Source of the DNA: a virus
Lineage: Duplodnaviria > Heunggongvirae > Uroviricota > Caudoviricetes
Direction: 5' to 3' (one strand)
Length of the DNA: 17,916 bases
Virus record (IMG/VR): IMGVR_UViG_2690316248_000008
Part shown: positions 1 to 16,863 of the stretch, one piece after another
Numbering within the stretch: the first letter of the stretch is position 1
Layout: each line of letters begins with the position of its first letter
Position numbers and translations under genes: made by a program
The notes under the pieces: model-generated
Told to the model about the DNA's origin: nothing
The model's input: only the letters and a program-made list of their open reading frames with translations
Database searches by the model: none

Positions 1-573
1 ATGCTGATTGGCTACATACGTGTGTCAACAAATGACCAAAACACAGATTTGCAACGCAATGCATTAATGTGCGCAGGATGTGAACAGATTTTTGAGGACA
101 AAATGAGCGGAACCAAGTCGGAACGACCAGGCCTGAAACGCGCTTTAAAGTGCCTTAAAAGAGGGGATACATTGGTGGTCTGGAAGCTGGATCGGTTGGG
201 TAGAAGAATGAAACACCTCATTGCTCTCACAGAAGAGCTACGCGCAAAAGGTGTCAATTTTCGCAGTCTGACGGATTCAATCGATACCAGCACTCCGATG
301 GGAAGGTTCTTTTTTCATATGATGGGTGCACTGGCAGAAATGGAGCGTGAACTGATAGTTGAGCGCACGCTGGCAGGACTGGCTGCTGCGCGAGCACAAG
401 GAAGAGTTGGAGGACGTCGCCCGAAACTGACGAAGGAGCAGCATGAGCAGATCGCAAGATTGCTCCAGAAAGGGTATGACAGAAAGCGGCTGGCAATTAT
501 CTATGATATTGGACTGTCAACGATCTACCGCTACCACCCTGTTGGGACTGTCATAACGCAACCTGAAATGTAA
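1..573 (+). CDS. Site-specific DNA invertase, serine recombinase of the Hin/Gin/Pin/Cin family
   Basis: Complete ORF starting at window base 1. N-terminus MLIGYIRVSTNDQNTDLQRNAL carries the catalytic Ser motif typical of this family; GDTLVVWKLDRLGR and SLTDSIDTS...MGRFFF blocks and a C-terminal HTH (LSTIYRY) are present. The last ~15 residues diverge from Pin/Hin as I recall them. Confidence 0.9.
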   Translation: MLIGYIRVSTNDQNTDLQRNALMCAGCEQIFEDKMSGTKSERPGLKRALKCLKRGDTLVVWKLDRLGRRMKHLIALTEELRAKGVNFRSLTDSIDTSTPMGRFFFHMMGALAEMERELIVERTLAGLAAARAQGRVGGRRPKLTKEQHEQIARLLQKGYDRKRLAIIYDIGLSTIYRYHPVGTVITQPEM

Positions 574-749
574 TTCTTTTTCAAATAATGAAACGCCGCG
601 TGGATGCCATTTATCGCACAAGATAGAGTGCATTTATCGCGCGGCGCATCAGCCAGTACCGGAAAAATCCCCTGCGGATACACCATTGCTGCGATTAACA
701 ACGCCATCCATAACATCAGAAACAGCCCGCTGATTAATTTCTTTTTCAT
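531..749 (-). CDS. Small membrane protein, possibly a truncated lysis accessory gene (LysA/spanin-like remnant)
   Basis: ATG at 749 preceded by GGGAG, one base after the endolysin stop. N-terminal TM segment (LISGLFLMLWMALLIAAMV). Its 3' end overlaps the convergent invertase gene by 43 bp, which suggests the native C-terminus was lost at a rearrangement joint. Confidence 0.35.
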   Translation of the reverse strand: MKKKLISGLFLMLWMALLIAAMVYPQGIFPVLADAPRDKCTLSCAINGIHAAFHYLKKNYISGCVMTVPTGW

Positions 750-750
750 T

Positions 751-1263
751 TCAGTTTGCTCCCTGTAAACACCAGGCCATCTCCCGCGCACGGCGGTTAT
801 CCAGCCCCTGATTAAACACACCTTTCACATAAACCCAGCGCGGCAACTGTCGGCACGCATCCGCCCAGCGCCGCTGATTGAGTAATTTCACCAGTGTTGA
901 ACTGCAGGCATTGTCCGTTCCCACGTTGAAGGCAAACGACACCGTAGCGTCATATACCTTCTGCGGCGGCTGTTGCTTCACACACCTTTCCAGCGCCCGC
1001 TCCACACGCAGCACGTTGGAGATCAGCCCTTTTGCTGCCTGTCGCTCCGTAATGGTTTTGCCGGGAATGACGCCCGACGTATTACCAATGCCGTCGGTCC
1101 AGACGCCCGCGCTGCACTGATACGGCTGCAGACGACAGCCTTCGTAATCGGCAATCAGTTTCAGCCCCTCTACGGAGGTGTGAAGCTGCTGAAAACCCGG
1201 CAGCGTGGCAGCAATAGCCAGCACGGCCCCGACAAGGCAGCGTTTAACGATTGATGGATTCAT
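751..1263 (-). CDS. Phage lysozyme (endolysin) with N-terminal signal-anchor (SAR-like) segment
   Basis: 170 aa; LIADYEGCRLQPYQC...GVWTDGIGNT matches the catalytic region of T4/P22-type phage lysozymes. N-terminal weakly hydrophobic Gly/Ala-rich stretch CLVGAVLAIAATLPGF. Overlaps the holin gene 3' end by 20 bp. Confidence 0.85.
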   Translation of the reverse strand: MNPSIVKRCLVGAVLAIAATLPGFQQLHTSVEGLKLIADYEGCRLQPYQCSAGVWTDGIGNTSGVIPGKTITERQAAKGLISNVLRVERALERCVKQQPPQKVYDATVSFAFNVGTDNACSSTLVKLLNQRRWADACRQLPRWVYVKGVFNQGLDNRRAREMAWCLQGAN

Positions 1264-1459
1264 AGTCCTCCCGCGAGATCTGCCCGTCGCGCAGAAGCTG
1301 GTAGGCTTTGTGTTTGTAGTACCAGTTGATAGCCAGCATCAGCACACCAATCATCAGGCCGCCCAGCGTTGAGGCATCCTTGATGGACAAATCGCCCAGC
1401 CAGGCCAGCACAACGGCGATGCAGTACGTGATAAAGGCGCTGATTCGCTCAAGCGTCAT
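1244..1459 (-). CDS. Putative holin (71 aa, two predicted TM helices; pinholin-like)
   Basis: Two hydrophobic segments (ISAFITYCIAVVLAWLG and LGGLMIGVLMLAINWYY) and a charged C-terminus. Sits between tail gene X and the endolysin, where P2-like phages place the holin. Confidence 0.6.
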   Translation of the reverse strand: MTLERISAFITYCIAVVLAWLGDLSIKDASTLGGLMIGVLMLAINWYYKHKAYQLLRDGQISREDYESINR

Positions 1460-1462
1460 AAT

Positions 1463-1666
1463 TCAGTCCCATAGCTGGACGGTCTGCACGGTGGTGGTAG
1501 TCGGAATGTCCGGCAGCTCCACCTGCAGCCCGTGAGGTAAAAAGGGGCCGTATTCGGCAAGCCCCGGATTTGCCTTCAGTACCTGCTCCGTGACACCCTG
1601 CGTGCGCCCGTAATGACGCCAGCAAAGCGCGTCCACCGTGTCATACTGATGCGCACGCACTTTCAT
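1463..1666 (-). CDS. X: Tail protein X (P2 gpX-like)
   Basis: 67 aa, the size of P2 gpX, in the expected position after L. Its ATG overlaps the L stop codon. Confidence 0.8.
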   Translation of the reverse strand: MKVRAHQYDTVDALCWRHYGRTQGVTEQVLKANPGLAEYGPFLPHGLQVELPDIPTTTTVQTVQLWD

Positions 1667-2130
1667 CAGATAAGCTCCACTGTGCAGTGCGGCGCGTCCT
1701 GTACCCGGCTGATGGCCCAGCGGGCGTCACGCCATAAATCACCGCTGGCTTCCGCCAGTTCCTCGCCTCGCTTCACACCAGACGCCGTGGCGTCATAGTC
1801 CTGGTATCGTTCGTTGAGCATGGCGCGGGCCCAGCAGTAAACCGCGTTGAAATAGTGCTGAATGCGCTCACTTTTCCCGTCCAGATGTTCTGCCGGAACC
1901 TCTGCCAGCGAGGCATATCCCAGCATCTGCTGGCGTCTGCGAAACTCATACAGCTCTGCGTTGACCTCCGAAATTGCCGACAGCGCAACCTGCTTTAAAC
2001 GCGGCTGCGTCACCGTGCCGTCAGTGCGCATGACACTGCGAAACTCCGACAAGTCCACATCAGGCCAGAACGGCGTATTCCTGATGATTTCCGCCTGTTC
2101 CGGTGCCTGTTCTGGCGCAACAAACTTCAT
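1666..2130 (-). CDS. L: Head completion/stabilization protein (P2 gpL-like)
   Basis: Syntenic position after M. Start set at the ATG at 2130, which has an AGGAGA RBS 7 nt upstream. The longer ORF in the track (to 2193) begins with GTG and has no RBS. Confidence 0.8.
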   Translation of the reverse strand: MKFVAPEQAPEQAEIIRNTPFWPDVDLSEFRSVMRTDGTVTQPRLKQVALSAISEVNAELYEFRRRQQMLGYASLAEVPAEHLDGKSERIQHYFNAVYCWARAMLNERYQDYDATASGVKRGEELAEASGDLWRDARWAISRVQDAPHCTVELI

Positions 2131-2193
2131 GCTGCTTTCTCCTGAAATAGAGGGCGGTGGACGGGGTTTTGATGTGGCGGTGCCTTTCGCCAC

Positions 2194-2225
2194 CCCGTGC
2201 CGCCCGTGCGCGGGGGCACGTTCTG
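2194..2225. other. GC-rich inverted repeat (CGTGCC ... GGCACG) between M and L
   Basis: Arms CGTGCC and GGCACG are reverse complements flanking a GC-rich loop. Lies in the roughly 95-bp M-L spacer. Confidence 0.3.
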
Positions 2226-2876
2226 TCAGCGGCTGTCATTGCGCAGTCTGCGCTCCAGCTGCTGTTTGTCTTTTTTCACGCCACAGCGGGGATCGAGCTG
2301 TAACGCATGGTTGAGATGATTAAGGGCGGAAGCCGGATTGCTTTCACTCAGGACAGCGCCAATCGCTTTATGCAGACGCGCCCGTGACTGGTCCGGCATA
2401 TCCAGACCGTCTGTCAGCTCCAGCGTCTGCAACAACAGATCGGCATCAAAGCCGGTGGCGGCAAGCATTGCGCTCTGCGCGGCGTCTGCCATTTCCTCTG
2501 CCAGCACGGTCTGCACGTTGCGGTTACCCAGCGGCATCACCCAGCCATGACGCAGGGCATGACGCCCGATCTCCAGCGCTCCGGCATAATCTCCGGCATC
2601 AATGCGCCACAGCATCACGTACATCAGCACGTCATCCTGTTGAGCGCCTCCGGCAGCCAGGACACCCTCTGCCCAGGCGGCGTACTTCGGCAGCAGCTCC
2701 ACCTTGATTTCCGCTTTTTTGACCGTGGACTGAACGCCCTTGAGACGGCGGCGGTCTTCCGCCAGTTGCAGCAGCATCAGGTCATGGCCCGATGCGTGGC
2801 GAACACTGCCGCCCTCGCGGGCGGCCTGTTCAGCCTGAACGCGCAGGCGATGCTGCCGTGCGGGACTCAGGTTCAT
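2226..2876 (-). CDS. M: Terminase endonuclease/small subunit (P2 gpM-like)
   Basis: 216 aa; position between N and L. ATG at 2876 with GGAG 8 nt upstream, 3 bp after the N stop. Confidence 0.85.
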   Translation of the reverse strand: MNLSPARQHRLRVQAEQAAREGGSVRHASGHDLMLLQLAEDRRRLKGVQSTVKKAEIKVELLPKYAAWAEGVLAAGGAQQDDVLMYVMLWRIDAGDYAGALEIGRHALRHGWVMPLGNRNVQTVLAEEMADAAQSAMLAATGFDADLLLQTLELTDGLDMPDQSRARLHKAIGAVLSESNPASALNHLNHALQLDPRCGVKKDKQQLERRLRNDSR

Positions 2877-2879
2877 GGA

Positions 2880-3938
2880 TTACGCTCCGGTTTCGGCTGC
2901 GGCGGCGCTGAAATCACCAATCTGGATGTTTTCCACCAGTGCGGCGCAGCGGTAGTCCTCAACCACATAGGCTTCGTTAACGGATTCAAAGTTTTCAATC
3001 CGGTCACGTTTCGGGTTGTCGATAACTGAACGGCGGCGGGTGTCTTCCTGCCAGTAGATGGACAGGTTATCCAGACGGGTGATCAGCAGCGCATTCGGCG
3101 GGAAGAACGGCGCACGCACGGCCTGCAGACCGCCCATGCGTTTCTGACTGATAATCATATCGGCTGCCAATTTTTCACTGTTTTCCTGCTCTTTGTTGAC
3201 CAGCGGGAAATACTTGTCAGACAGCAGTTCACGACCGCAAATCACCACCAGATCGTCATCGTCCTGGTAGACCACGTCGATAAGCTCATTGACCGCATCC
3301 ATCACCACAGCGTCCAAGTTGGCATATTCGCCCCCTTTACCGACTTTCACCGCACCCGGTGTGGTTTCGCCGCCCGTGGTGGTGCTGCCCATGACGTGAT
3401 CCGGTGCATCCTCACGGATTTTCTGCAGCCAGCCTTTGTTCACATCCTGCAGCAGCGGGTTTTCACTACGGTTGGAGGTTTTCGCACGCTTCACGCCGTT
3501 AAAGCCGATCATGATGCGGTCCAGTGCCTGACGTTTCACGATGGCGTCACGGATACGCACCTGGAAATCCTGAAACTTCGCCCACAGGTCCAGCTTCGCG
3601 TAGGTCAGCACCGTGTCAAAGTTGGTCTGCTCGCATTTATATTCCACATCGACCATCAGCGTCGGATCGACAGGTTCACGCTCTTTTGCGGTGGTGTCAG
3701 TGGTTCCGGCAATGGTGCTGCCAACACCCAGCCCCAGCAGCTGACCGGACTGCTCAGTCACTGGCGTGACGTTAATCAGTGTCAGGAAAGCGGCGGACTG
3801 CTGGATCTGGTCTTCCAGCGTCTGCTGCACAGACGGCTCCACGGTGAACTTGCTGGACAGTTCTTCAACTGCCACACCGTTCAGACGCGCCAGCTGCTGC
3901 AGGTAAGCGTTAAAAGCAAAGCGGGTATTCTTCTTCAT
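2880..3938 (-). CDS. N: Major capsid protein (P2 gpN-like)
   Basis: 352 aa. Blocks such as TRFAFNAYL, KFTVEPSVQQTL, LDLWAKFQDFQVRIRDAIVKRQ and LSIYWQEDTRRR closely match P2 gpN as I recall it. Confidence 0.9.
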   Translation of the reverse strand: MKKNTRFAFNAYLQQLARLNGVAVEELSSKFTVEPSVQQTLEDQIQQSAAFLTLINVTPVTEQSGQLLGLGVGSTIAGTTDTTAKEREPVDPTLMVDVEYKCEQTNFDTVLTYAKLDLWAKFQDFQVRIRDAIVKRQALDRIMIGFNGVKRAKTSNRSENPLLQDVNKGWLQKIREDAPDHVMGSTTTGGETTPGAVKVGKGGEYANLDAVVMDAVNELIDVVYQDDDDLVVICGRELLSDKYFPLVNKEQENSEKLAADMIISQKRMGGLQAVRAPFFPPNALLITRLDNLSIYWQEDTRRRSVIDNPKRDRIENFESVNEAYVVEDYRCAALVENIQIGDFSAAAAETGA

Positions 3939-3954
3939 CGGGTTTTGTGCTCCA

Positions 3955-4788
3955 TCAGCAATTGGTCAGAGTGTCAGCGGGGGCGTTACCGCCTGTTGCA
4001 CGCTGGCGGTAGTCCTGGCGACTGTCTTCATGACTCAGCTTGTCCACCAGTTCGTTAAAGACGGTTTGCTGTGCCTGCAGGGCAGTCTCCAGCTCAGACA
4101 GGCGTTCTTCCTGCTCAGACAGGGATTTTTCGGTGCGTGCGCTCAGGTTCTGCTGCTCAGTGGCAACCAGCTCCACGGCCTTATGCACATCAGAGAACCG
4201 GGCGTCATCGGACTGCTCTTTTTTGGTAAACAGCGCCGTGACACGGGCAAACAGGGACGGTTTGTCGTCCTGGATTTCTTCCAGTTCGATCACCGTTTCC
4301 TCTGCAGCAGTAAAGAGATTGGCAGGATTCTGCTTGCGGTTTGCCAGCGGGTTATGGGCTGCACTGGCGCTGAATGTCAGCATTTCCGTACCCAGACTGG
4401 CAGGGTCATCAGTGGCAGCCAGGCCGACCAGGTAGGCTTTGCCCGTATCAGCGAACTTCGGGCTGACTTCCATAGAGGTGAATAATTTCTGGCCTTTTTT
4501 CACCAGTTCCACCAGGGACTCCGTTGGCTCAACGTCGGCATACAGCGCCATCTTGCCTGCCAGCGGACCTTCCGTGATTTCTTCAGCAAACAGCGCCGTC
4601 ACCTTGCCGTAGCGGTTAAAGGTGCTGTCCGGTATATAAGACTTGATGTGCTCAAGGTTAATCAGCGCGGTATACACCGCCGGGTTGTAGCTGGCTGCCA
4701 TCTGTTCCAGCCATTCACGCTGGATTTCGCGTCCGTCGGTGGTGGCACCTTCCACCCCGATGCGAAAACGCTTTGCTTTCACTGTCAT
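3955..4788 (-). CDS. O: Capsid scaffolding protein (P2 gpO-like)
   Basis: 277 aa; first gene of the leftward late operon, divergent from P. GGAG RBS 9 nt upstream of the ATG at 4788. Confidence 0.9.
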   Translation of the reverse strand: MTVKAKRFRIGVEGATTDGREIQREWLEQMAASYNPAVYTALINLEHIKSYIPDSTFNRYGKVTALFAEEITEGPLAGKMALYADVEPTESLVELVKKGQKLFTSMEVSPKFADTGKAYLVGLAATDDPASLGTEMLTFSASAAHNPLANRKQNPANLFTAAEETVIELEEIQDDKPSLFARVTALFTKKEQSDDARFSDVHKAVELVATEQQNLSARTEKSLSEQEERLSELETALQAQQTVFNELVDKLSHEDSRQDYRQRATGGNAPADTLTNC

Positions 4789-4866
4789 GAGCCGTGCTCC
4801 GTTAGAAAAAACTTACTGGAGCCTTATGGTTGCGGTGATGGGGGCAGTGAAACAATGCGCGGTATT

Positions 4867-4884
4867 TGTACCGACAACCACACA
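4867..4884. promoter_or_regulatory. TGT-N12-ACA dyad in the O/P divergent intergenic region, candidate Ogr/Delta-type late activator site
   Basis: Sequence TGT-ACCGACAACCAC-ACA read directly. P2-family late promoters carry a TGT-N12-ACA element near -55 (established knowledge). Spacing fits a leftward O promoter better than a P promoter. Confidence 0.5.
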
Positions 4885-4930
4885 AACCGCAGGCGGGGAA
4901 AGCCTTCATTCAAGGCTGTAGGTTTGTGCC

Positions 4931-6697
4931 ATGAACACCACACTGACACCCGCAGATCTCGATCCCCGTCGGCAGGCCATGCTGCTGTACTTTCAGGGAT
5001 ACCGCGTAGCCCGCATTGCTGAAATGCTGGGCGAGAAAGTTGCAACTGTTCACAGCTGGAAAAAACGCGACAAGTGGGGTGACTATGGGCCGCTGGATCA
5101 GATGCAGCTCACCACCGCCGCACGCTACTGCCAGCTCATTATGAAGGAGCACAAAGAAGGGAAAGATTTCAAAGAGATTGACCTGCTGGCGCGCCAGTCG
5201 GAGCGCCATGCGCGGATCGGCAAGTTTAACAATGGCGGCAACGAAGCCGACTTAAACCCTAACGTCGCCAACCGCAACAAAGGCCCGCGCCGTCAGCCGG
5301 AAAAGAACGTTTTCACCGATGAACAGATTGAGAAGCTGGAAGAAATCTTCCATTCCTCCATGTTCAACTACCAGCGCCACTGGTGGGAAGCCGGAAAAAA
5401 CAACCGCATCCGCAACCTGCTGAAGTCACGCCAGATCGGCGCAACCTTTTACTTTGCCCGTGAAGCCCTGATTGACGCTCTGCTTACCGGGCGTAACCAG
5501 ATTTTCCTTTCCGCCAGTAAGGCACAGGCCCACGTCTTTAAGCAGTACATCATCGACTTCGCCAAAGAAGTGGAGGTGGAGCTGAAAGGCGATCCGATGG
5601 TGCTTCCTAACGGGGCCACGCTTTACTTCCTAGGCACCAATGCCCGCACGGCCCAGAGTTATCACGGCAACCTGTATCTGGATGAATATTTCTGGATACC
5701 AAAATTTCAGGAGCTGCGCAAAGTGGCTTCCGGTATGGCTATTCACAAGAAATGGCGACAGACCTATTTTTCCACGCCATCCAGCCTGACCCACAGTGCT
5801 TATCCGTTCTGGTCCGGCGCGTTGTTCAACCGTGGGCGCAACAAAGCCGATAAGGTGGACATCGACCTGTCCCACAGCAATCTGGCCCCCGGCCTGCTGT
5901 GCGCAGACGGGCAATACCGCCAGATAGTCACCGTGGAAGATGCGGTACGCGGCGGCTGTAACCTGTTCGACCTCGACCAGTTGCGCATGGAGTACAGCCC
6001 GGACGAATACCAGAACCTGCTGATGTGCGAGTTCGTTGACGATCTCGCATCTGTGTTCCCGCTCAGCGAATTGCAGGCGTGCATGGTGGACAGCTGGGAA
6101 GTCTGGACCGACTTTCATGCACTGGCGCTGCGCCCGTTTGGCTGGCGCGAAGTGTGGATCGGTTATGACCCGGCAAAAGGTACGCAGAACGGCGACAGTG
6201 CCGGATGCGTGGTGGTGGCTCCGCCAGCCGTGCCGGGCGGTAAGTTCCGTATTCTTGAGCGTCACCAGTGGCGCGGGATGGACTTCCGCGCCCAGGCGGA
6301 CGCCATCAAAAAACTGACCGAACAGTACAACGTGACATATATCGGCATCGACTCGACAGGTGTCGGTCACGGGGTTTATGAGAACGTGAAAGCGTTCTTT
6401 CCTGCCGTCCGGGAGTTTGTCTACAACCCCAACGTTAAAAACGCCCTGGTACTCAAGGCCTACGACATTATCAGCCACCGCCGTCTGGAGTTTGACGCCG
6501 GACACACCGACATTGCGCAGTCATTCATGGCAATCCGTCGCGCAACCACCGCCAGCGGCAACCGCCCGACCTATGAAGCCAGCCGCAGCGAAGAAGCCAG
6601 CCACGCCGATCTGGCCTGGGCAACAATGCACGCACTGTTTAACGAACCACTGCAGGGCGAGTCCGCCAATACCAGTAATATTGTGGAGATTTTTTGA
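4931..6697 (+). CDS. P: Terminase ATPase/large subunit (P2 gpP-like)
   Basis: 588 aa; divergent from O and immediately upstream of the portal gene, as in P2. Its stop overlaps the Q start (TGATG). Confidence 0.9.
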   Translation: MNTTLTPADLDPRRQAMLLYFQGYRVARIAEMLGEKVATVHSWKKRDKWGDYGPLDQMQLTTAARYCQLIMKEHKEGKDFKEIDLLARQSERHARIGKFNNGGNEADLNPNVANRNKGPRRQPEKNVFTDEQIEKLEEIFHSSMFNYQRHWWEAGKNNRIRNLLKSRQIGATFYFAREALIDALLTGRNQIFLSASKAQAHVFKQYIIDFAKEVEVELKGDPMVLPNGATLYFLGTNARTAQSYHGNLYLDEYFWIPKFQELRKVASGMAIHKKWRQTYFSTPSSLTHSAYPFWSGALFNRGRNKADKVDIDLSHSNLAPGLLCADGQYRQIVTVEDAVRGGCNLFDLDQLRMEYSPDEYQNLLMCEFVDDLASVFPLSELQACMVDSWEVWTDFHALALRPFGWREVWIGYDPAKGTQNGDSAGCVVVAPPAVPGGKFRILERHQWRGMDFRAQADAIKKLTEQYNVTYIGIDSTGVGHGVYENVKAFFPAVREFVYNPNVKNALVLKAYDIISHRRLEFDAGHTDIAQSFMAIRRATTASGNRPTYEASRSEEASHADLAWATMHALFNEPLQGESANTSNIVEIF

Positions 6698-7722
6698 TGG
6701 GAAAGAGTAAGAAGAACCGCGCTGCGTCGACGAACCAGCTCCAGCATAAAAGCCAGACTTCAGCCGAAGCATTCAGCTTCGGTGATCCCGTTCCTGTTCT
6801 GGACCGCCGTGAACTGCTGGACTATGTGGAATGCGTACAGACAGATCGCTGGTATGAGCCGCCCGTCAGCTTTGACGGACTGGCGCGCACCTTCCGCGCC
6901 GCCGTGCATCACAGTTCTCCGATTGCAGTAAAGTGCAACATTCTGACCAGTACCTATATCCCTCATCCGCTGCTCAGCCAGCAGGCTTTTTCGCGTTTTG
7001 TGCAGGACTATCTGGTATTTGGTAACGCCTACCTGGAGAAACGCACGAACCGATTCGGTGAAGTTATCGCCCTTGATCCTGCGCTGGCAAAATACACCCG
7101 ACGCGGGTTAGACCTGGATACCTACTGGTTTGTGCAATACGGTATGACAACCCAGCCGTATCAGTTCACGAAAGGCAGCATTTTTCATCTGATGGAACCG
7201 GACATCAACCAGGAGATCTACGGCCTGCCCGGCTATCTTTCTGCCATTCCGTCAGCCCTGCTCAATAAGTCCGCCACGCTGTTCCGCCGCAAGTATTACA
7301 TCAACGGCAGCCATGCAGGCTTCATCATGTATATGACCGATGCCGCGCAGAATCAGGAGGATGTGAACAATCTCCGCAACGCGATGAAAAGTGCCAAAGG
7401 TCCTGGTAACTTCCGTAACCTGTTTATGTACTCGCCTAACGGTAAAAAGGACGGGCTTCAGATTATCCCGTTGTCAGAAGTGGCGGCGAAGGATGAGTTC
7501 CTGAATATCAAGAACGTGAGCCGGGACGACATGATGGCGGCGCATCGTGTGCCGCCACAAATGATGGGGATAATGCCTAATAATGTTGGAGGGTTTGGGG
7601 ATGTGGAGAAGGCGAGTAAGGTTTTTGTTAGAAATGAACTAATTCCACTCCAAAAAAGAATAATGGAAGTTAATGAATGGTTAGGTGAGAAAACTATCCG
7701 ATTTCAGCATTATGATTTATAA
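6697..7722 (+). CDS. Q: Portal protein (P2 gpQ-like)
   Basis: 341 aa from the ATG at 6697 (GGAG RBS 9 nt upstream). The ORF-track start at 6694 is a TTG. Followed by a strong terminator. Confidence 0.9.
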   Translation: MGKSKKNRAASTNQLQHKSQTSAEAFSFGDPVPVLDRRELLDYVECVQTDRWYEPPVSFDGLARTFRAAVHHSSPIAVKCNILTSTYIPHPLLSQQAFSRFVQDYLVFGNAYLEKRTNRFGEVIALDPALAKYTRRGLDLDTYWFVQYGMTTQPYQFTKGSIFHLMEPDINQEIYGLPGYLSAIPSALLNKSATLFRRKYYINGSHAGFIMYMTDAAQNQEDVNNLRNAMKSAKGPGNFRNLFMYSPNGKKDGLQIIPLSEVAAKDEFLNIKNVSRDDMMAAHRVPPQMMGIMPNNVGGFGDVEKASKVFVRNELIPLQKRIMEVNEWLGEKTIRFQHYDL

Positions 7723-7747
7723 AAAAACGCCCTAAAAGGGCGTTTTC
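7721..7747. terminator. Bidirectional rho-independent terminator between portal gene Q and the convergent cargo operon
   Basis: AAAACGCCC-TAAAA-GGGCGTTTT hairpin with a 9-bp stem. It is followed by a T-run on the plus strand and by seven T on the minus strand. Confidence 0.7.
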
Positions 7748-8194
7748 CTAAGATTCTGTCGTTGTCTCTAATGAACACCAAGCATTAATTCCCATTTTTG
7801 AGACAGCTATCAACATAATTACTACAGCTGGAGCAATAAATGTTGCTGTTGCCCCCAAAGAACCCGCAATTGCCGAAGAGATCACCCCTACAAAGTATGT
7901 TTTAACATCACCAGTCAGTGCTCCTAAACATTCCCTCTCCTCTGCATATTTATCACCTCCACATACAAAAGCCTTAAACTCTAATTTAAACTGCTCAACA
8001 AACGCTTTTCTTCCCGGCATTTTTGAATTATCACCGCCAAATTGAGCAACTGAACTTGGGCCAGATGCAGTTAGCCATAGCTCAAGAGCCTTTTCTTCAT
8101 CGCCATTTTCGAGAAAATTCCTGACAGATGAAGATTGATACGTTTTTAAAGTGGACAACCAAGACTCAGCATCTTCATTTGGTATAGCAATCAT
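7748..8194 (-). CDS. Hypothetical protein with soluble N-terminal domain and C-terminal membrane anchor; partner of the upstream protease
   Basis: 148 aa. The C-terminal hydrophobic stretch YFVGVISSAIAGSLGATATFIAPAVVIMLIAVSKMGI is about 35 residues, enough for one long helix or a TM hairpin. ATG overlaps the protease stop (ATGA at 8191-8194). AT-rich codon usage, unlike the phage core. Confidence 0.6.
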   Translation of the reverse strand: MIAIPNEDAESWLSTLKTYQSSSVRNFLENGDEEKALELWLTASGPSSVAQFGGDNSKMPGRKAFVEQFKLEFKAFVCGGDKYAEERECLGALTGDVKTYFVGVISSAIAGSLGATATFIAPAVVIMLIAVSKMGINAWCSLETTTES

Positions 8195-8838
8195 AACATA
8201 TCCTTAACATATTCTGCAGAAACCGCATAAGTTGTCTGATGTAGTTCAGCTGGATTAATACCTCCAACCAAAACAGAACCTCCAGAATTATTTGCATAAG
8301 CGCCAACCAAGACGCCTATTACCGAGTCATTTTTTAAATTAAATACAATCGATCCCGATTGACCAGGTCTGGTTTGGATATTTATAACGGCATGTTTAGA
8401 TTGAATATTACTGCTTGAAAGTAAAACTTTTGCACCTATTTTTGCCGTTTGAAATGTCAATACTTTTCTATTTTCATTACAATGTGGGAAACCTAAAATA
8501 CCCACATCTTCACCGACATTAACATCGTCAAGAGTAGCAATTTTTAGGCAAGGTTCATAAACAGGTGCATTTTTAATTTTTAACACACATAAGTCTTTTA
8601 TTGGATCTTCATCAATAACATCAACTCCAATACATTGAAATTTATCAACACTTGTATCCTGATAACTATTAAAGTTATTTATATTAGATGGAGAAATAAC
8701 TAAGTTAGAAGAAAACCCATTAATAACATGGCGGGAAGTAATTATTTTATCCTTAGAAATAAAAAAACCTGTTCCTAAAAAACTAACCAAACCTGCATTA
8801 AGCACGCCAACAACTACGACATATTCAGGACCAATCAT
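8191..8838 (-). CDS. Trypsin-fold (chymotrypsin-like, S1/Trypsin_2-type) serine protease
   Basis: Catalytic triad motifs in canonical order: GTGFFISKDKIITSRHVI (His), DLCVLKI (Asp), PGQSGSIVF (Ser). Start set at the ATG at 8838 with GGAG about 5-8 nt upstream. The ORF-track extension to 8976 would run across the cos-like sequence. Confidence 0.75.
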   Translation of the reverse strand: MIGPEYVVVVGVLNAGLVSFLGTGFFISKDKIITSRHVINGFSSNLVISPSNINNFNSYQDTSVDKFQCIGVDVIDEDPIKDLCVLKIKNAPVYEPCLKIATLDDVNVGEDVGILGFPHCNENRKVLTFQTAKIGAKVLLSSSNIQSKHAVINIQTRPGQSGSIVFNLKNDSVIGVLVGAYANNSGGSVLVGGINPAELHQTTYAVSAEYVKDML

Positions 8839-8921
8839 AACAACTCCATTCTGTAATATGTTATGGACTCTGACTAAGACAATACTTAACCAAACCGTGA
8901 ATATCAAGGTGCAAGCGCGCG

Positions 8922-8940
8922 CTCGTATCCCCGCCACGCC
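8922..8940 (-). other. Putative cos cohesive-end sequence
   Basis: The minus strand reads GGCGTGGCGGGGATACGAG. Its first 13 nt match the 186-type cohesive end as I recall it (GGCGTGGCGGGGA...), and the adjacent AGCGCGCG resembles the sequence next to P2 cos. Orientation relative to Q is as expected. Based on recalled sequences, not a search. Confidence 0.4.
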
Positions 8941-8989
8941 TGCCCGCTTTATGTAGTGGTTTTCATGCAGGAGCATGATCTACGCAAAA

Positions 8990-9009
8990 GCCCGCCAGTT
9001 CTGGCGGGC
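8990..9009. other. Perfect 9-bp inverted repeat (GCCCGCCAG-TT-CTGGCGGGC) beside the cos-like site
   Basis: Read directly from sequence. A T-run follows only on the minus strand. Could be a terminator or a packaging/cos accessory structure. Confidence 0.35.
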
Positions 9010-9282
9010 CTTAGCAAAAACGATCCTCAAACGATCATGCAATCTCATGCAGCATAGACATGCACAGACGAGTAAAGCGAATCGGACTTTACGCAAGGTG
9101 AACTCCTCAGCGGGCATAATCAGTATGTCGGAAGATCTCTAAAAATAAATAATTCGGTTAACAGGTATGCTTACAAAAGCATATATTTGATTAAAAATCA
9201 TGTAAGGGGGAGGATCTCAAACTGAATCGCCACGGGTTTTACAAATTTCGATAGTCTCTCTAACGTTTCGGCTGAGGTCAAA

Positions 9283-9708
9283 ATGAAAAGCTTTTACGTA
9301 TTAATTTTAATTCTGGTTGCAAGCTTTGTTAGCGTCCCTGTTCAGGCGGTAACAGCTAAAAACTATGAGAAAGGAACTAAAGCTCAACAGAAATCAATAT
9401 CTTACCTTTCATGTGCATTCTATGGCAGTAGCACACAATTAGATCCTAGCTACACGGAGCAAGTACCTACAGCCGATATCAAGATATTACAGAAAGCAGC
9501 TTACCACGCTTACAACGATGCGCTCTCATACTTTGGCTATGAGGAACCAGATCACGAACAACGCATAATTGATTATGCTGAATTTGTGGCGTCGCAAGAA
9601 GCTGTGTTATGGGATAAGCCGGGAATGAATGGAAAGCAGGTAACACTAATTGCTCGTTCTCTCTACAATGAGAGTAACTGTAACTTGTTACTGGACTCAA
9701 TTAAGTAG
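9283..9708 (+). CDS. Hypothetical secreted/periplasmic protein (cargo moron)
   Basis: 141 aa. N-terminal signal peptide MKSFYVLILILVASFVSVPVQA with an AXA-type cleavage site. GAGG RBS upstream. AT-rich; the only plus-strand gene between cos and gene A. Confidence 0.6.
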   Translation: MKSFYVLILILVASFVSVPVQAVTAKNYEKGTKAQQKSISYLSCAFYGSSTQLDPSYTEQVPTADIKILQKAAYHAYNDALSYFGYEEPDHEQRIIDYAEFVASQEAVLWDKPGMNGKQVTLIARSLYNESNCNLLLDSIK

Positions 9709-9867
9709 GAAAAAGATGGTATTTTGCCCGTAGTTTCAACCTTAATCTCCGAACCTATCGCAGAACGGGCGTTCACTCATCAAATAAACGCCACACCTAA
9801 CGCCTCACTGTACTCGTTGTTCAACCTTGCTGACGCCAGAACCAAGTTCAGACGCCAGCAACTTTTC

Positions 9868-10101
9868 TTAATGCAGCCAGCTGTCGTCTTCCCACACCTT
9901 CTGCATAATCTTCATCACTTGTTTTCTTTCTTCGTCCAGTTGCAGTCCGGTCAGTTCCACACCGTTAGAGCTACCTTTGCGGATGCGAATTACCGTTTTG
10001 GGATACAGGGGGCGCAGATTGCGGTAAAGCTCGGATTCAAGGGCGTCCAGGGTAGACTGGCTAATCTTCTGCTCTTTATCGATCATTATTTCAATGCGCA
10101 T
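9868..10101 (-). CDS. DinI-family protein (Tum C-terminal-like)
   Basis: 77 aa from the ATG at 10101. MRIEIMIDK...LDALESEL...KIMQKVWEDDSW resembles E. coli DinI (MRIEV..., ending with an acidic W-containing tail). RBS GAGGTGA overlaps the stop of the upstream gene. Confidence 0.8.
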   Translation of the reverse strand: MRIEIMIDKEQKISQSTLDALESELYRNLRPLYPKTVIRIRKGSSNGVELTGLQLDEERKQVMKIMQKVWEDDSWLH

Positions 10102-10111
10102 AAAGGTCACC

Positions 10112-10300
10112 TCAGCTGATGACATCCATTGAGCGGTTGTATTCGTGGGTTCTGATTTTTGCCATGAGTTCATCTGTCAGTTCAGAAACCCACTGCAAAG
10201 CCAGCCCCTTCTCTTCATCACTACACTCACTAGCCGCTACAAGCTTAAGAAAAAAATCAATGCGCTGGAGCTTCAAAGACTCCAAAAAATAGTCCTGCAT
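10112..10300 (-). CDS. Small SOS-regulated protein, possible Tum-like antirepressor N-terminal part
   Basis: 62 aa from the ATG at 10300, with AGGAGG 4 nt upstream. It is the first gene downstream of the LexA box and 10 bp upstream of the DinI-like gene. Confidence 0.5.
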   Translation of the reverse strand: MQDYFLESLKLQRIDFFLKLVAASECSDEEKGLALQWVSELTDELMAKIRTHEYNRSMDVIS

Positions 10301-10341
10301 CTTTCCTCCTATGACACCACAAGCAATACTGTATACATAAC

Positions 10342-10361
10342 CACTGTTTATATTTACAGTA
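10342..10361. promoter_or_regulatory. LexA operator (SOS box) in the promoter of the small-protein/DinI-like operon
   Basis: CACTGTTTATATTTACAGTA is a perfect CTGT-N8-ACAG palindrome with an AT-rich core. Candidate -35 TTTACA and -10 TATACT on the minus strand overlap it. Confidence 0.7.
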
Positions 10362-10453
10362 TATAATAATCTTACTGATGTAAAACGTTTTTTTACGTTC
10401 ATTAGCCTGATATGCCTGGTATTATTAAGAGCACGAATTGTTAACCCGCGTAA

Positions 10454-12868
10454 TTAATACAGGTTTCGCCACTTATCATCTTCCTGCAAACGCTGGTTCC
10501 GATAGAAGATACGCAGGCCTGCTCCTGACGGAATACTGCCGCCGCGAAGGAGTAAATCGACCTCTTTCTCGCTGCCATTAAATCCTCTGGACTTCAGTTC
10601 ATAGACGAGCTGCTGTCGCTGATGGTCTATAATTCGCTGTTTGTAGTCTTTACGCCGTTTCGGTTTCACCAGGCGTAACCTTGCAGCCAGTTCCCGGCGC
10701 TCTTTTTTGCTCATACTGTGCAGGTAATCGTGCAACTCCTTGTCATCCATGCGGGTAATGTCCGTCCTGGTATCCCCATCAGCTGATTTGTCTTTCCCTT
10801 GTTGGTTCAAATTTTCAGCAAGGGGACAGTTATTGCCACGAGTCCAAGGGGCGCAAGCGCCCTGGTCGGCTGCCGCCTCCTGAACGTCAACGGCTTTACG
10901 AACCATTTTCCACTTCACTGCATGAGTGCAGATCTTGCCTTCTGCAATGGGTGACCAGATGCCATAAATACGAATACCGTGATCGCCATAGGCGGTCGGC
11001 TCTTCATTGATTTCATAAGCGGTTCTGATCAAGTGATATTTGCGAGGAACCAGCACGCCGCCCTGCCTCATAATGTAGGTGGCAAAACAGCCAGCATCAG
11101 CAGCAGCCAGGATGGCATCAAGGCGCGGGTTATCCAGTACCGGCGCACCTGCTTTTTTGTCACCCTGCTGCCTTGCCGCCTGACCAGCCAACAACCGCAG
11201 TTCACGGTAAGCCTGACGCCCTGGAATACCAAAGAAGCGGAATTGCTGAACACGATGCAGAGACGCCCAGGCATTAACGTATTCAGCGTTATCACGCAGG
11301 GATTTACCCGTTTCCTTGCTGATCTCGCCAGCCAGACCACGCCCGTCAATGTTCTTACTGATGTATTTCGCGATGTAGCTTGTCGGCGTTCCTTTGCGCG
11401 GGTTTATCAGCTCAGATTTAAAGCGTGGACCAGTGTTATTACCCAGTTCCTCGCGGTCTTCACGGATGGCAAACTTACGCAACAATGCAGTAATGGCGCG
11501 GCGGTCTTTTTTGCGCATAAAACACAACAGGTGCCAGTGAACTGTACCGTCATGATGCGGCTCAGCCACCCGCACGCCATACCAGCGCAACCCGGCTTTG
11601 TGCATCGCCTTACGAAATGCAGCAAACATGCCGACCAGATAATCGCTGCTTTGTCTTACCGTCGCATTTGTCCAGGTTGGGTTTGGTCTGCCGTTATTGA
11701 GCGTGGAATGGAAACGTGACGGACAGGTAATGGTGTAGAAAACGGCGCAGTCACCGCGCATTTCCGCGATAAGCTCCAGACCTTTAACACAGGCCATCAT
11801 CTCATTGCGGCGGTGCGCCGGGTTGCTGCTGCTGGCGTTTACCACGTCTTCCATATCCAGCGTGTCGCCCTCTTCGTTCACCAGTTCATGAGAACGGAAA
11901 AACTCCAGTGACTTGCGGCGCTGCTCACGTTTATGCATCACGGCTTCATAGCTGACATAGGGAGATGCTTTTTTGCTGACCAGGCAGACAGCACGCAACT
12001 GCTCTTCCCGCCATTCGCAACGCATTTTCCATAATTTCCGGTACCACCAGTCGGCGCACAACATACGCGCCAGCGAACCCGGAATGAGTTCATAGGGCAC
12101 GGGTTTACGGCGGTTTCTTTTCCGACGGAGTTGCTCAAACGCAGGCGGGATGACATCCAGACGCAGGGTTTCCGCTGCCACCTTTTCCCATGTCTTGCGG
12201 ATTTCTTCTGGCTTAACGTCATCGGTGGCATACAAATCACCACAAGCTGCATCAAGGCACATGCTCATATGCGCAGCGACAAGGGTAGACAGGCGTTTCA
12301 CCTGATCCTGACTCATTTCAGGCAGAATCAGCAGGCCGTCCAGCCCTACATGGCTTGCCATAAAACGAAAAGATGCAGATAGCTGGCTGTCGCGTACATG
12401 CTCCAGTCGTTCCAGACATGGCTTAATCGTCTCACGTAAATAGCGGGAATAAGCCTTTGGCCTGCCCAGGCTGCTGAAGTATTCAATACGTTGCATCAGC
12501 GGCTTGCTGATATGGGAAGGCTGGGCGTTGACGTCCGCCAGAATGACCATATCCGGATTAAAACGCTGCTGCTCATGCGCCAGCTTTGCCCGGCTAATGA
12601 GCTTATCCTGCTCCATTTCGTGCTGGACAGGATCACGTGATTCATTAAAAAAATAACGCTCCCAGACCTGATCACTCAGTGCCTCGCGGCGCAACTGTTC
12701 CTGCTCGTTATCGGCAGCGTACAGAGTGATCAGGTTTGAAAGCGCAGAAACCGGCGCAACTTCCGCCGGGTCCAGATAAGGGTTAATGGCCTTTTTCGGG
12801 CTGTTCCATGAGAACGCTGCGGCAGCCTCGTTAAAGCCGCAGCAGTTGTTCATATCGGCATGGCTCAT
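10454..12868 (-). CDS. A: Replication initiation endonuclease (P2/186 gpA-like, rolling-circle initiator)
   Basis: 804 aa, the largest early gene, in the gpA position downstream of the early operon. Call rests on size, position and overall resemblance to P2/186 A proteins; no single motif was verified. ATG overlaps the Dam stop (ATGA). Confidence 0.85.
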
Positions 12869-13722
12869 GCACGTACTCCGTACACGGCAGAACTATCCAC
12901 GCCACGCGAATAATCAAATCCCACCCAGCAGCGCGGCCCGGAAACAGCAATGATTTCTGTTGCTGATTTACCCTCGCCAGCTGCCACACCGATGATGCGT
13001 TTTACCTTGATATAGTGGTGAGTAAAATTGCGATACAGCGAACGGATCAGGGATGTGTCACTGTTAGAAACAATGACCGGATGTCCTTCTGATGACCGAT
13101 GTTCAAGAACAGATGCCAGGTGATACTGGTCATCTTCAGTGAAGCCGTCAGTGTGATAGCCGGAAAACGTACCGTCATACGGTGGATCGCAATACACCAC
13201 ATCCCCCGCCTTCAACATCGCCAGCGTTTCATCAAAGCTGGCGCAGATAAACGTTGCTCGCTGGGCTTTTTCTGCAAATGCGCGAATTTCTTTTTCAGGG
13301 AAATACGGATTTTTATAATTGCCGTAGGGAATGTTGAAATGCCCGCTCTTGTTATAGCGACATAAACCACGGTAACCGTGACGATTGAGATACAGGAAAT
13401 ATACCGCTTTCATGAAATCAGTAATTTCAGTTGAGTAATTAAACTCCTTCCTTATGTTGTAATAAGCCACCTCCCTGTTTGCGATCTCAAATAAAACTCT
13501 GGCGCGAGATATAAACGATTCACAATCAGCAGCAACCTTTTTATAGAGGTTGATTAAATCAGGATTAATATCCGCAACAAGATAGCTGGGGTACTCCGTC
13601 TCCATCATCACTGCACAGGAACCCGCGAAAGGTTCAACCAGTCGCGGGCCAGCAGGAAGATGCTTTTTCAGTTCGGACATAATGGCGGTTTTATTTCCCG
13701 CCCATTTCAGGATGGTGCTCAT
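12865..13722 (-). CDS. dam: DNA adenine methyltransferase (Dam-like, N6-adenine)
   Basis: 285 aa from the ATG at 13722. N-terminal LKWAGNK (AdoMet-binding motif) and catalytic DPPY are present. Translationally coupled to both neighbours. Confidence 0.85.
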
Positions 13723-13946
13723 ACAGCACCTCCGTTGTAATGTTTGCCTTTCAGCTCTGCGATTTCCTGACAGGTAATGCAAAGCTGCACACCTGGAATG
13801 GCACGGCGGCGTGCTGGCGGAATTGGCGCTTCACACTCAATGCAAAGCACGCGGGACACGCCCGGCGTTTTGGCACGGGCAGCACGGATATGACGCTGGC
13901 GTTCTTCTTCAACGCGCTGCTGTACGAGATCCATTGCATCAGCCAT
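13719..13946 (-). CDS. TraR/DksA-family C4 zinc-finger protein
   Basis: 75 aa with CIECEAPI...CITCQ (CxxC-N17-CxxC). AGGAG RBS 8 nt upstream of the ATG. Confidence 0.75.
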   Translation of the reverse strand: MADAMDLVQQRVEEERQRHIRAARAKTPGVSRVLCIECEAPIPPARRRAIPGVQLCITCQEIAELKGKHYNGGAV

Positions 13947-14179
13947 TAGTGGATCTCCTGCGCTTCGTTCTGGATTGCTTCAGCAGTCACGCGCAGCAGT
14001 TCTGCCGCTTCGACGTGGTTTAGCTGGCGGGATGTGATATGGCACGCAAGGCTATCAAGGCGGGCAGCCATTGCCTCTGCTCTTGCCCGGCGTTCTTCCA
14101 GACGAGCCTCTGTCAGTAAAATATTAAGCCCTGCGTCATCCGGTCCGGTTTTGGTCGAGAGGGTTTCAATATTACGCAT
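13946..14179 (-). CDS. Hypothetical phage early protein
   Basis: 77 aa from the ATG at 14179 (AGGAG 8 nt upstream). The ORF-track start at 14185 is a TTG. Position is within the early operon. Confidence 0.55.
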   Translation of the reverse strand: MRNIETLSTKTGPDDAGLNILLTEARLEERRARAEAMAARLDSLACHITSRQLNHVEAAELLRVTAEAIQNEAQEIH

Positions 14180-14246
14180 AATCAATTCTCCTGAATTTAG
14201 ATAAAGGGATGCCCGGCGGGTTTACGCCATTAATTTCATTAGTTGG

Positions 14247-14588
14247 TTAATTCGGCATGGTTAGCCGTCTGGGAAATAAGCTCACCACTGCACGAAAATG
14301 ATTCATTGCTTTAATCAGCTCCCGCTTTTCGTCAGTGGTCAGCTCATTAATGCTGATGCTATGACGTTCAGCTGGAATTTTTGCCATAAAGAATATGGCA
14401 GCCAGTGCCCGTTTATTTTGTTCATTATTGATATCCCGTGGATCACGCATATCTTTAATAAACTGCTCAAGCTCTGACTCAATATTCAGGCCAAAAACTT
14501 TCGCCCTTAACTCCGCAATGTGATTAAGTCCATTCAGGCGTTCACCGGGGCTTAATGGAACAGTTGCTGCAGCGCCATTAATTGCCAT
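14247..14588 (-). CDS. Hypothetical phage early protein
   Basis: 113 aa; ATG at 14588; same strand and tight spacing with neighbouring early genes. Confidence 0.55.
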   Translation of the reverse strand: MAINGAAATVPLSPGERLNGLNHIAELRAKVFGLNIESELEQFIKDMRDPRDINNEQNKRALAAIFFMAKIPAERHSISINELTTDEKRELIKAMNHFRAVVSLFPRRLTMPN

Positions 14589-14610
14589 ACTTCATATTCC
14601 CCAAACGCAG

Positions 14611-14835
14611 CTATCGTTCTTTGTTCTTACGGTAACGCTCAAGAGGAGATACATTTTTTCGTATCGTCTCTTTAACCTGCTCTCCCCGTAAAAACGTCCC
14701 ATCCTTTAACGTGAAAAAGTAACTGCCATCTCCCGACAATGACGGATAGCAACAGAGCAAATCATCTTCAGGTACTGAATAACTCTCCCCTCTGTAACGA
14801 AACTGATAAACCACTTCACTTTCTGCCGCATACAT
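14611..14835 (-). CDS. Hypothetical small phage protein
   Basis: 74 aa with protein-like composition throughout. GGAG about 9 nt upstream of the ATG at 14835. Confidence 0.45.
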   Translation of the reverse strand: MYAAESEVVYQFRYRGESYSVPEDDLLCCYPSLSGDGSYFFTLKDGTFLRGEQVKETIRKNVSPLERYRKNKER

Positions 14836-15002
14836 TTGGACTTTCTCCGTTTCCTCGTGGTCAATTCAGACAGCAATTCATCTTGTGAATGACATGGATG
14901 CCAGCGTTTTCCATCCTCACCCGTGATCCAGCCGTAACCGTAGTGCATTGCCGGGCTTTGTTTTACCAGCAGCGATGCAAATGATGGTTCTTTCGTCAGC
15001 AT
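14706..15002 (-). CDS. Hypothetical protein overlapping the 14611-14835 ORF in another frame (uncertain)
   Basis: ATG at 15002 with GAGGTG just after the CII stop. The N-terminal ~50 aa look protein-like, but the distal half is Cys/Arg-rich and overlaps the neighbouring ORF by 130 bp. Confidence 0.3.
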   Translation of the reverse strand: MLTKEPSFASLLVKQSPAMHYGYGWITGEDGKRWHPCHSQDELLSELTTRKRRKSKCMRQKVKWFISFVTEGRVIQYLKMICSVAIRHCREMAVTFSR

Positions 15003-15009
15003 AAGCACC

Positions 15010-15519
15010 TCACAGCAAACCGAATGAAGCACCGAGGCCAGTCACGGTATCAACTGCACTCGCCATCGCAGGATTAGCCTGTAAACGGGCCTGCAATGAA
15101 ACAGCAGCCAGCGCCATCAGTCGTGTTACAGAGTTAATGCTGCTGATAGCATCACGACGACCGGCACAGGTTTTTACATCGCCAGACACCGCACCTGCAG
15201 CAACACGCCCGATCTCTGCGGTTGCACTCATGACGTAATGTGGCAGTTTCTCTTTTGCCACCTCATTAATCGGTACACATGGCAGACAATGAATCTGTGC
15301 CAGAAAACCATCTACCAGCGTTGAATCTTCAGTCAGATCGGTAAGCAGCCAGATTTCTGGTGCGGTTAATAAATGAGGCTGAGCTGGGTTCAGCTTGTTC
15401 CGCAGAATCTGCACATTCATGCCTGCACGTTCTGCCAGTTGCACCAGATTGTGGCGCAGTGCAAATGCACGACAGGCTTCATCAAAATGTGGATGTTTGG
15501 AAACTTGGTAATCAAACAT
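15010..15519 (-). CDS. cII: CII-like lysogeny-establishment regulator (phage 186 CII family)
   Basis: 169 aa from the ATG at 15519, the same length as 186 CII as I recall it. Lies immediately downstream of the Apl/Cox-like gene. N-terminal HTH-like region. Confidence 0.75.
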
Positions 15520-15551
15520 GGTCAATGCCTCTGATGTATTTCAGAATCGAA

Positions 15552-15773
15552 CTAATTAAGGTTTAGATTGCATTCTGAAAGCGCATCAACGGTCATTGCT
15601 GCTATGTTGATCATCACTTTTTCGCGTTTTTTATCTTTGCGCAGACGGTGACGGATAAGGCGTCCATCAGCCAACATGTCATTGATGGTATCGATGGATA
15701 GCCCTGTCAGCTCGCTATAGCGTTCAATAGTCACATGAGGCGTGGTAAGAGTGATTGAAATGTTAGGTCTCAT
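15552..15773 (-). CDS. Apl/Cox-like small HTH regulator (excision/lytic-switch protein)
   Basis: 73 aa; first gene of the minus-strand early operon, divergent from CI. HTH-like segment [29 protein letters not shown] upstream. Confidence 0.6.
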
Positions 15774-15898
15774 GATGCAACATTCCTCGTTTAATGATGA
15801 TTAATCAGGACGAATACGGATCGTTTGTATTTTGTGAACACCATAAACATACGATCGCACGGCGAAATCGTCAAGATAAAAGTTCACTTGGAGTGACC
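15774..15898. promoter_or_regulatory. Immunity switch region between apl/cox-like and cI (lytic and lysogenic promoters, operators)
   Basis: 125-bp divergent intergenic region. Candidate lytic promoter on the minus strand: -35 TTGACG (15869-15874), 17-bp spacer, -10 TATGTT (15846-15851). Inverted GTGAAC/GTTCAC motifs at about 15832 and 15882. Confidence 0.5.
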
Positions 15899-16468: not shown

Positions 16469-16483
16469 TACCGGGAGGAAACT

Positions 16484-16675
16484 ATGCTTGGTAAAGTATT
16501 TTTTGTGGTTTTATCATGCTCTTTGTTATTAAGCCCACTAACTACCTATGCTAAAAATTATCCTTGTTCTGGGAAAAAGGGAGGTGTCTCTCACTGTACC
16601 TCCGATGGAAAATTTGTTTGCAATGATGGAACTATTAGTAAATCCAAAAAAATCTGTACTAAAAACTCACGATAA
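16484..16675 (+). CDS. Small secreted cysteine-rich protein (moron between cI and int)
   Basis: 63 aa with signal peptide [23 protein letters not shown]. The mature part of about 40 aa has four Cys. Strong RBS GGGAGG 15 bp after the cI stop, so it is probably co-transcribed with cI. Confidence 0.55.
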
Positions 16676-16810
16676 CTTTTGCTTTTATATCTGCGTCTAA
16701 AATAAAAATGAGCCGCAGGTTAACCGCAAAAGTTACATGCTCACATAGCAAAAAGAATAGCCAACTTCATTATGGCTTCAGTGAGATGTATGGTCGTAGG
16801 ATTTCATACA

Positions 16811-16839: not shown

Positions 16840-16863
16840 GCTCTCTACTGGAGGGCATTTTTT

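Follow-up and report, generated by a model that had tools for sequence, protein, structure and literature searches.

The window analysed here, a 17,916-nt stretch of DNA, very probably captures the right-hand edge of one phage inside another: a BcepMu-like phage of approximately 38 kb that entered the lysA gene of a resident P2-like prophage through DDE transposition. According to the mechanism we propose, the phage would have landed at codon 32-33 of lysA, in a prophage known in intact form between ybjL and rcdA in Escherichia coli SF-468. Insertion would have doubled the 6-bp target GCCAGT and split lysA in two. The 5' piece of lysA would read into the transposon end, giving an ORF of 72 aa. 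Beyond the left end of the inserted phage, approximately 38 kb leftward, would lie the 3' piece and after it lysB, lysC, R, S and the P2 tail genes. We attribute the joint to DDE transposition because the breakpoint falls at a transposon terminus, a 6-bp duplication accompanies it and the reciprocal junction could be found.

Positions of the features of the window on which the interpretation is based.
Feature	Position	Strand	Basis or remark
Hin/Gin-type serine DNA invertase	1-573	+	Pfam Resolvase and HTH_7; read as the last gene of the inserted BcepMu-like phage
Right terminus of the transposable phage	574-651	+	CATTTATCGC twice (608-617 and 631-640); CA at 650-651
GCCAGT, right-hand copy of the 6-bp target-site duplication	652-657		Single copy at the SF-468 empty site
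P2-type lysA 5' fragment, codons 1-32 plus 2 nt	652-749	-	Match to full-length LysA
Chimeric 72-aa ORF, ATG start	531-749	-	LysA residues 1-32 plus 40 antisense residues
Intact upstream part of the P2 lysis region	751-1666	-	Order collinear with phage 500465-1 and SF-468
Endolysin K	751-1263	-	Pfam Phage_lysozyme
Holin Y	1244-1459	-	Precomputed Phage_holin_2_3
gpX	1463-1666	-	Precomputed Phage_tail_X
P2-like (Peduoviridae) prophage segment, from inside lysA to the integrase stop codon	652-17916		Identity to SF-468

The window opens on the ATG of a 190-aa invertase ORF, the first base of which is base 1. As had been predicted, the 3' end of this Hin/Gin-type gene is overlapped over 43 bp by the antisense 72-aa ORF. 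The minus strand carries a series of genes in P2 order, namely scaffold O, capsid N, small terminase M, head completion L, gpX, holin, endolysin and the 72-aa ORF, which sits immediately downstream of endolysin and holin. The right part of the window holds terminase P, portal Q, a two-gene insert, replication gene A, a Dam methylase, CI and the integrase, so that the P2-like segment can be written int-CI-...-A-...-Q-P / O-N-M-L-X-Y-K-lysA. Tail sheath, tube, baseplate and fibre genes are absent from the 17,916 nt. The statement that no tail genes occur in the window is thus correct for the main tail modules but not for gpX, the sole tail-related gene present, which occupies its usual P2 position. 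The P2-type lysis cassette is itself incomplete in the window, with LysA residues 1-32 only and neither lysB nor lysC; the SF-468 twin has all three genes.

Two other parts of the window deserve mention. The two-gene insert (7748-8976, minus strand) separates portal gene Q from the replication region and consists of a trypsin-like S1 peptidase gene (8191-8976; 215 aa from the annotated start) and a gene for a 148-aa protein. It matches a PADLOC candidate system, with hits to PDC-M35A (E 8e-94) and PDC-M35B (E 4e-58). We take this site between Q and the replication genes to be a P2 accessory or defence hotspot. The P2-like prophage of strain AR_0085 carries genes of an ABC-three-component system just past its portal gene. 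At the far end of the window, the mechanical integrase ORF (16708-17916, plus strand) is 402 aa long; in SF-468 the integrase start is annotated at the equivalent of 16864, giving 350 aa. The window ends exactly at the integrase stop codon and includes neither an attachment site nor host DNA.

The break in similarity falls exactly at 651/652, 78 bp beyond the invertase stop codon. In a megablast search against phage genomes, Escherichia phage 500465-1 and Klebsiella phage 4LV2017 matched at approximately 97% identity (lysis and head region) from base 652 on. The same search against 5,426 complete E. coli genomes divided the window at base 651/652. Bases 1-651 match about 575-718 E. coli records, at 99.4-100% identity among the matches listed. 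Among approximately 45 matches listed, those to this end terminate at 651-661, beside unrelated genes that include irp1, rfaH, dcuC, yehQ, ssnA, ssuB, fdrA, dmsC, a lambdoid gpJ gene and others. Since bases 1-651 stop beside so many unrelated genes, we consider them to be the end of a mobile element. Bases 652-700 are matched in other E. coli genomes inside an intact gene of the 'DNZ54_00345 family' (LysA). The synteny break after the endolysin is therefore real and sharp, P2-like similarity starting at 652 and mobile-element similarity stopping at 651.

In none of the 5,426 complete E. coli genomes are the two parts joined at 651/652, and a 37-mer spanning this right junction had 0 matches in the GTDB representative genomes. 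This absence from complete genomes is what would be expected of an assembly chimera, in which 1-651 and 652-17916 had been falsely joined. We nevertheless hold such an artefact to be barely credible. Indeed, the same right junction with its chimeric ORF is present on an independently assembled 65-kb Logan contig, found in 2 samples. Moreover, the join falls exactly at a biologically defined terminus, and the reciprocal junction was predicted from the 6-bp rule and then found, as described below.

The nature of the mobile element was established from two complete copies, one of 38,341 bp in irp1 of strain MS20675 and one of 37,595 bp in lysB/lysC of AR_0085. Both encode an rve-domain DDE transposase with an adjacent AAA ATPase (Pfam rve and AAA_22), genes that lie outside the window. 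Both also contain Gam, GemA and Mor genes, an SLT-type lysis cassette, a Mu-type portal and a P2-type contractile tail, and finish with an invertible tail-fibre segment followed by the invertase as last gene. In tblastn searches the transposase was 68% identical to gp09 of Burkholderia phage BcepMu over 98% of the protein, and 98% identical to that of Escherichia phage PhiKM (NCBI: Bcepmuvirus). The layout is that of BcepMu, with an internal repressor region from which the early genes point leftward, and with late genes that point rightward.

The termini of the element are TG...CA, and the window holds the CA end. Read inward, the ends are TGATGCGCCGCGCGATAAATG... (right) and TGATCAGACATGAGATAAATG..., and a 10-bp motif occurs at nt 12-21 and 35-44 of both, in inverted orientation. 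The ends of BcepMu are clearly homologous, with TGAAGCGCGGCGCGATATTTC at the right end and TGAAGAGAGGTGAGATATTTC... at the other. We read the repeated 10-bp motifs as transposase-binding motifs. TG...CA termini are characteristic of BcepMu relatives (KS10 paper, PMC2628397). The complete copies are bordered by 6-bp direct duplications, ACTTGC and ATTATT, and the empty site of the AR_0085 insertion could be rebuilt without mismatch in two uninterrupted P2-like phages. Counting the window, 6-bp duplications are found in three insertions, two of them read directly and the third, that of the window, via the reciprocal junction protein. A BcepMu-type transposase and ATPase, TG...CA ends with their motifs, and many unrelated sites with a short duplication place the element among the BcepMu-like (Bcepmuvirus) phages. 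By sequence comparison, bases 1-651 are the terminal 651 bp of this approximately 38-kb BcepMu-like (Mu-style) transposable phage.

The AR_0085 copy (L006, 1357-38951) is an independent insertion of the same kind of phage in the lysB/lysC region of a different P2-like prophage, flanked by ATTATT. One further copy is annotated beside a lambdoid gpJ gene. Bcepmuvirus prophages have been reported earlier in E. coli ST131 and in gut isolates (10.1101/2022.05.07.487787; PMC12629997).

The target of the insertion could be identified at the nucleotide level. Bases 652-17916 of the window are 100.000% identical, over 17,265 nt and with no gaps, to positions 20001-37265 of L008, the SF-468 locus, which contains a complete P2-like prophage between ybjL and rcdA. 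The late genes of this prophage continue with lysA (125 aa), lysB, lysC, R, S, V, W, J, I, a fibre gene, fibre-assembly genes and an invertase of its own, followed by sheath, tube, tape-measure, U-like and D genes and ogr. The empty site in SF-468 reads ...GGACGCT-GCCAGT-ACCGG... (GGACGCTGCCAGTACCGG), with GCCAGT present once. Across the joint the window reads ...GCGCATCA/GCCAGT-ACCGG..., the slash marking 651/652.

Comparison of the joint with the intact lysA of SF-468 and of phage 500465-1, a check of the kind suggested by the original prediction, indicated that the 72-aa ORF is not a full-length gene. Its first 32 residues are those of SF-468 LysA; 31 of the 32 are found in phage 500465-1, which has P32 at the remaining position. 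The ORF consequently departs from LysA after residue 32 (SF-468 allele) or 31 (500465-1 allele). It has a precomputed Pfam match to PF28015 LysA; our own Pfam scan of the 72-aa ORF gave no match. The exact protein is on record on one Logan contig, in 2 samples. We read this ORF as LysA codons 1-32 extended by 40 codons that cross the transposon end and run antisense to the 3' end of the invertase gene. The 43-bp antisense overlap with the invertase gene is thus explained by the 5' piece of lysA reading through the transposon end.

Two observations on related loci can be added. In L008 (SF-468), a 652-aa 'AAA family ATPase' is encoded at 16235-18193, between S and the baseplate gene V and outside the window; it may be an accessory or defence gene. 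The public LysA variants P0036, P0040, P0020, P0026 and P0031 have unrelated N-terminal sequence joined to the C-terminal part of LysA, which suggests that different events have interrupted lysA, or shifted its reading frame, in other strains.

If the phage had inserted with a 6-bp duplication, the sequence of its other junction can be predicted. We built this left junction in silico from the left end of the element, the 6-bp duplication and the remainder of lysA. The predicted junction contains an ORF with its ATG inside the transposon end, running in frame as MSDQ followed by LysA residues 32-125; a duplication of 5 bp or 7 bp would destroy this frame. Ten allele variants of the predicted protein were then submitted to an exact-sequence look-up. 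One of the ten is present, as P0084, a 98-aa protein encoded on a single 32,065-bp contig of the Logan assembly, and its LysA part is identical to residues 32-125 of SF-468 LysA. The representatives returned by a homology search of a 5.8-billion-protein set were all full-length LysA clusters or truncated or chimeric LysA of other kinds; the left-junction protein lay within a 770-member cluster and was found by exact look-up only. A 27-mer of the predicted left junction had 0 matches in JGI metagenome contigs, and complete E. coli genomes, GTDB representative genomes and JGI metagenome contigs contain neither the left nor the right junction. At the protein level, P0084 shows that the insertion was a simple one, which duplicated 6 bp and removed no P2 sequence from the site. 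We infer that this junction comes from the same strain as the window.

P0084 also bears on whether the phage is still complete. Mu-type elements cause adjacent deletions, and transposition could have been followed by an adjacent deletion or rearrangement that left only a right-end fragment and removed the P2 tail region partly or wholly. The window and the matching public contig do show only approximately 0.8 kb of the element. However, P0084 can be encoded only where the left end is intact and adjoins, with the 6-bp duplication, P2 DNA that has not been deleted. Moreover, the 65-kb Logan contig extends just 143 bp upstream of the invertase ATG and breaks off within an inverted repeat, as is typical of short-read assembly. 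A secondary deletion of this kind is therefore very unlikely. By analogy with AR_0085 and SF-468, we consider that the copy inserted by transposition in lysA would be full length.

We then considered the part played by the invertase. Its 190-aa product matches Pfam Resolvase (E 8e-51, 172 bits) and HTH_7 (E 1e-12, 48 bits). It contains the motif YIRVSTNDQ, and in MLIGYIRVSTNDQ the catalytic Ser is read at residue 9. An N-terminal resolvase domain followed by a C-terminal HTH, a length of approximately 190 aa and the Ser in YxRVSTxxQ assign it to the Hin/Gin/Cin/Pin family. At the nucleotide level, the gene is 72-75% identical to invertase genes of P2-like phages (among the matches listed) and 69% identical to cin of P1/P7. 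It is 99.4-100% identical, again among the matches listed, to the 'recombinase family protein' gene that ends the element in several hundred E. coli genomes.

In the complete copies, inverted repeats of 229-274 nt begin approximately 60 bp upstream of the invertase ATG, outside the window, and flank alternative tail-fibre and fibre-assembly genes. At the boundaries of these repeats are 26-bp hix/gix-type sites, TTCCCCCAAACC-AA-CGTTTATCTCTC, with a 2-bp AA core. The tail-fibre genes and 26-bp sites that the original prediction had proposed to look for upstream are thus found in the complete copies, and the proximal crossover site is also on the public contig that bears the junction of the window. 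When MS20675 and AR_0085 are compared, the fibre and assembly genes are oppositely oriented and the left half-sites TTCCCCC and TTCTCCT are swapped at the core. Opposite orientations with exchanged half-sites are the expected footprint of inversion, and both isomers occur in nature. On the evidence of the complete copies, the substrate of the invertase is the tail-fibre segment of the transposable phage itself, just left of the window. It had been suggested that tail genes and the invertible segment could lie in that direction; the invertible segment does, but the adjacent tail genes are those of the inserted phage.

In MS20675, three crossover-like sites (approximately 2020, 3635 and 4185 in L005) and two nested inverted-repeat pairs are found between 2020 and 4200, while AR_0085 has only two sites. 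This suggests a multiple-inversion system rather than a two-state switch in MS20675. The intact P2-like prophage of SF-468 has its own Gin/Hin-type invertase (L008, 10161-10727), 75% identical at the protein level to that of the window and flanked by the tail-fibre-assembly genes and the sheath gene. A strain with both phages would therefore possess two related invertases and two invertible fibre segments, and cross-reaction between them is conceivable.

The original prediction had explained the joint by a deletion or rearrangement, possibly the work of the invertase. On this view, the P2 tail genes would have been lost when an invertase-mediated deletion or inversion brought the invertase region up against the lysis cassette, and what remains would be a defective prophage without a tail. 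In its favour, a truncated lysis gene does lie next to the invertase gene, the window has no P2 tail module, and P2-like phages of this lineage carry their own invertase, with 75% protein identity, beside their tail fibres. Nevertheless, this origin is extremely unlikely. The joint is not at a crossover site: it lies 78 bp past the invertase stop codon, at a terminus that adjoins hundreds of unrelated loci, and no crossover-like site with the AAACCNNSGT core occurs within 12 kb of it, the true sites being upstream of the gene. Furthermore, a 6-bp duplication and the full remainder of lysA at the reciprocal junction are hallmarks of transposition and not of site-specific recombination. Thus, neither the invertase nor a deletion accounts for a joint that coincides with a BcepMu-like terminus, carries a 6-bp duplication and involves no P2 loss at the site. 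With its crossover sites upstream of the gene and none near the joint, the invertase is therefore a passenger gene as regards the joint.

Two other explanations involving this gene were rejected. Recombination between the two invertase genes, whose proteins are 75% identical, does not fit a joint that is outside the gene and at the transposon terminus. Nor is the invertase of the window a gene of the P2-like phage, since the one of SF-468 sits between fibre and sheath genes and differs in sequence.

The consequences for the P2-like prophage would follow from the transposition of a complete phage into lysA. The SF-468 prophage and phages 500465-1 and 4LV2017 continue with lysA, lysB, lysC, R, S and the tail genes, whereas lysA in the window is cut after codon 32. 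In AR_0085, the P2 genes R, S, V, W, J and I, the fibre genes, the P2-like invertase, sheath, tube and the following tail genes resume directly past the far end of the element. On the model of AR_0085 and SF-468, the P2 tail module of the source strain is most likely intact and some 38 kb further left. The idea of a tail-less, likely defective prophage is consequently retained in one respect only: the prophage is probably disabled, through the insertion rather than through tail loss, for which the tail genes of the SF-468 twin give no support. The lysA gene itself is reportedly non-essential in P2. With 38 kb inserted in the O-to-S late operon, however, lysB, lysC and the tail-completion genes R and S should be subject to a polar effect. 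In addition, the cos-to-cos length, estimated from the prophage span plus the element, would be approximately 70 kb, beyond the capacity of the P2 head. It is because of this polarity on lysB/lysC/R/S and this length that we regard the prophage as probably non-viable.

The inserted phage resembles BcepMu and PhiKM in its rve transposase with a neighbouring AAA ATPase, its leftward Mor/GemA/Gam early genes and its internal repressor region. It also shares with them SLT lysis genes, a Mu-type head, a P2-type tail, TG...CA ends with 10-bp motifs and many insertion sites. Unlike BcepMu, which has an acyltransferase gene at this position, the E. coli element ends in an invertible fibre segment and an invertase. 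Indeed, BcepMu has been reported to be without an invertible region (PMC2628397). In this part of its genome the element is similar to the Mu G segment with Gin and to the Hin, Cin and Pin systems. Common to them are a serine invertase of approximately 190 aa, encoded next to an invertible segment of tail-fibre genes close to the right end of a transposable phage, crossover sites of 26 bp with AA at the centre, and alternative fibre and assembly genes. Some differences are however clear. Mu has the com/mom genes between gin and its right end, whereas in the element no gene follows that of the invertase and the terminus is 78 bp away. Mu duplications are 5 bp long, and those of the element 6 bp. 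Finally, the three crossover-like sites of the MS20675 copy distinguish it from two-site systems.

Two independent insertions are located in P2-type lysis cassettes, in lysA for the window and in lysB/lysC for AR_0085. They could be taken to mean that enterobacterial BcepMu-like phages land or persist in P2-like late operons above chance and so silence the lysis and tail genes of a competitor, the 6-bp duplication then reflecting a distinct transpososome. We regard this target bias as very unlikely. The likeliest reason for the two insertions is that they are tolerated in silent prophage DNA. Nested-prophage insertion is an ordinary event of an already known kind, in which a member of an established phage group disrupts its target in the manner of Mu.

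These results are of practical value for annotation. An invertase gene near lysis genes can be the terminal gene of a nested transposable phage, and the 72-aa "membrane ORF" beside it a fusion artefact. Once the TG...CA end and the 6-bp duplication are recognised, the P2-like prophage need not be labelled "tail-less", nor a rearrangement attributed to the invertase. More generally, BcepMu-like phages are common in E. coli and disrupt irp1 as well as other prophages, as is expected of Mu-type phages, and this bears on prophage inducibility and on strain evolution.
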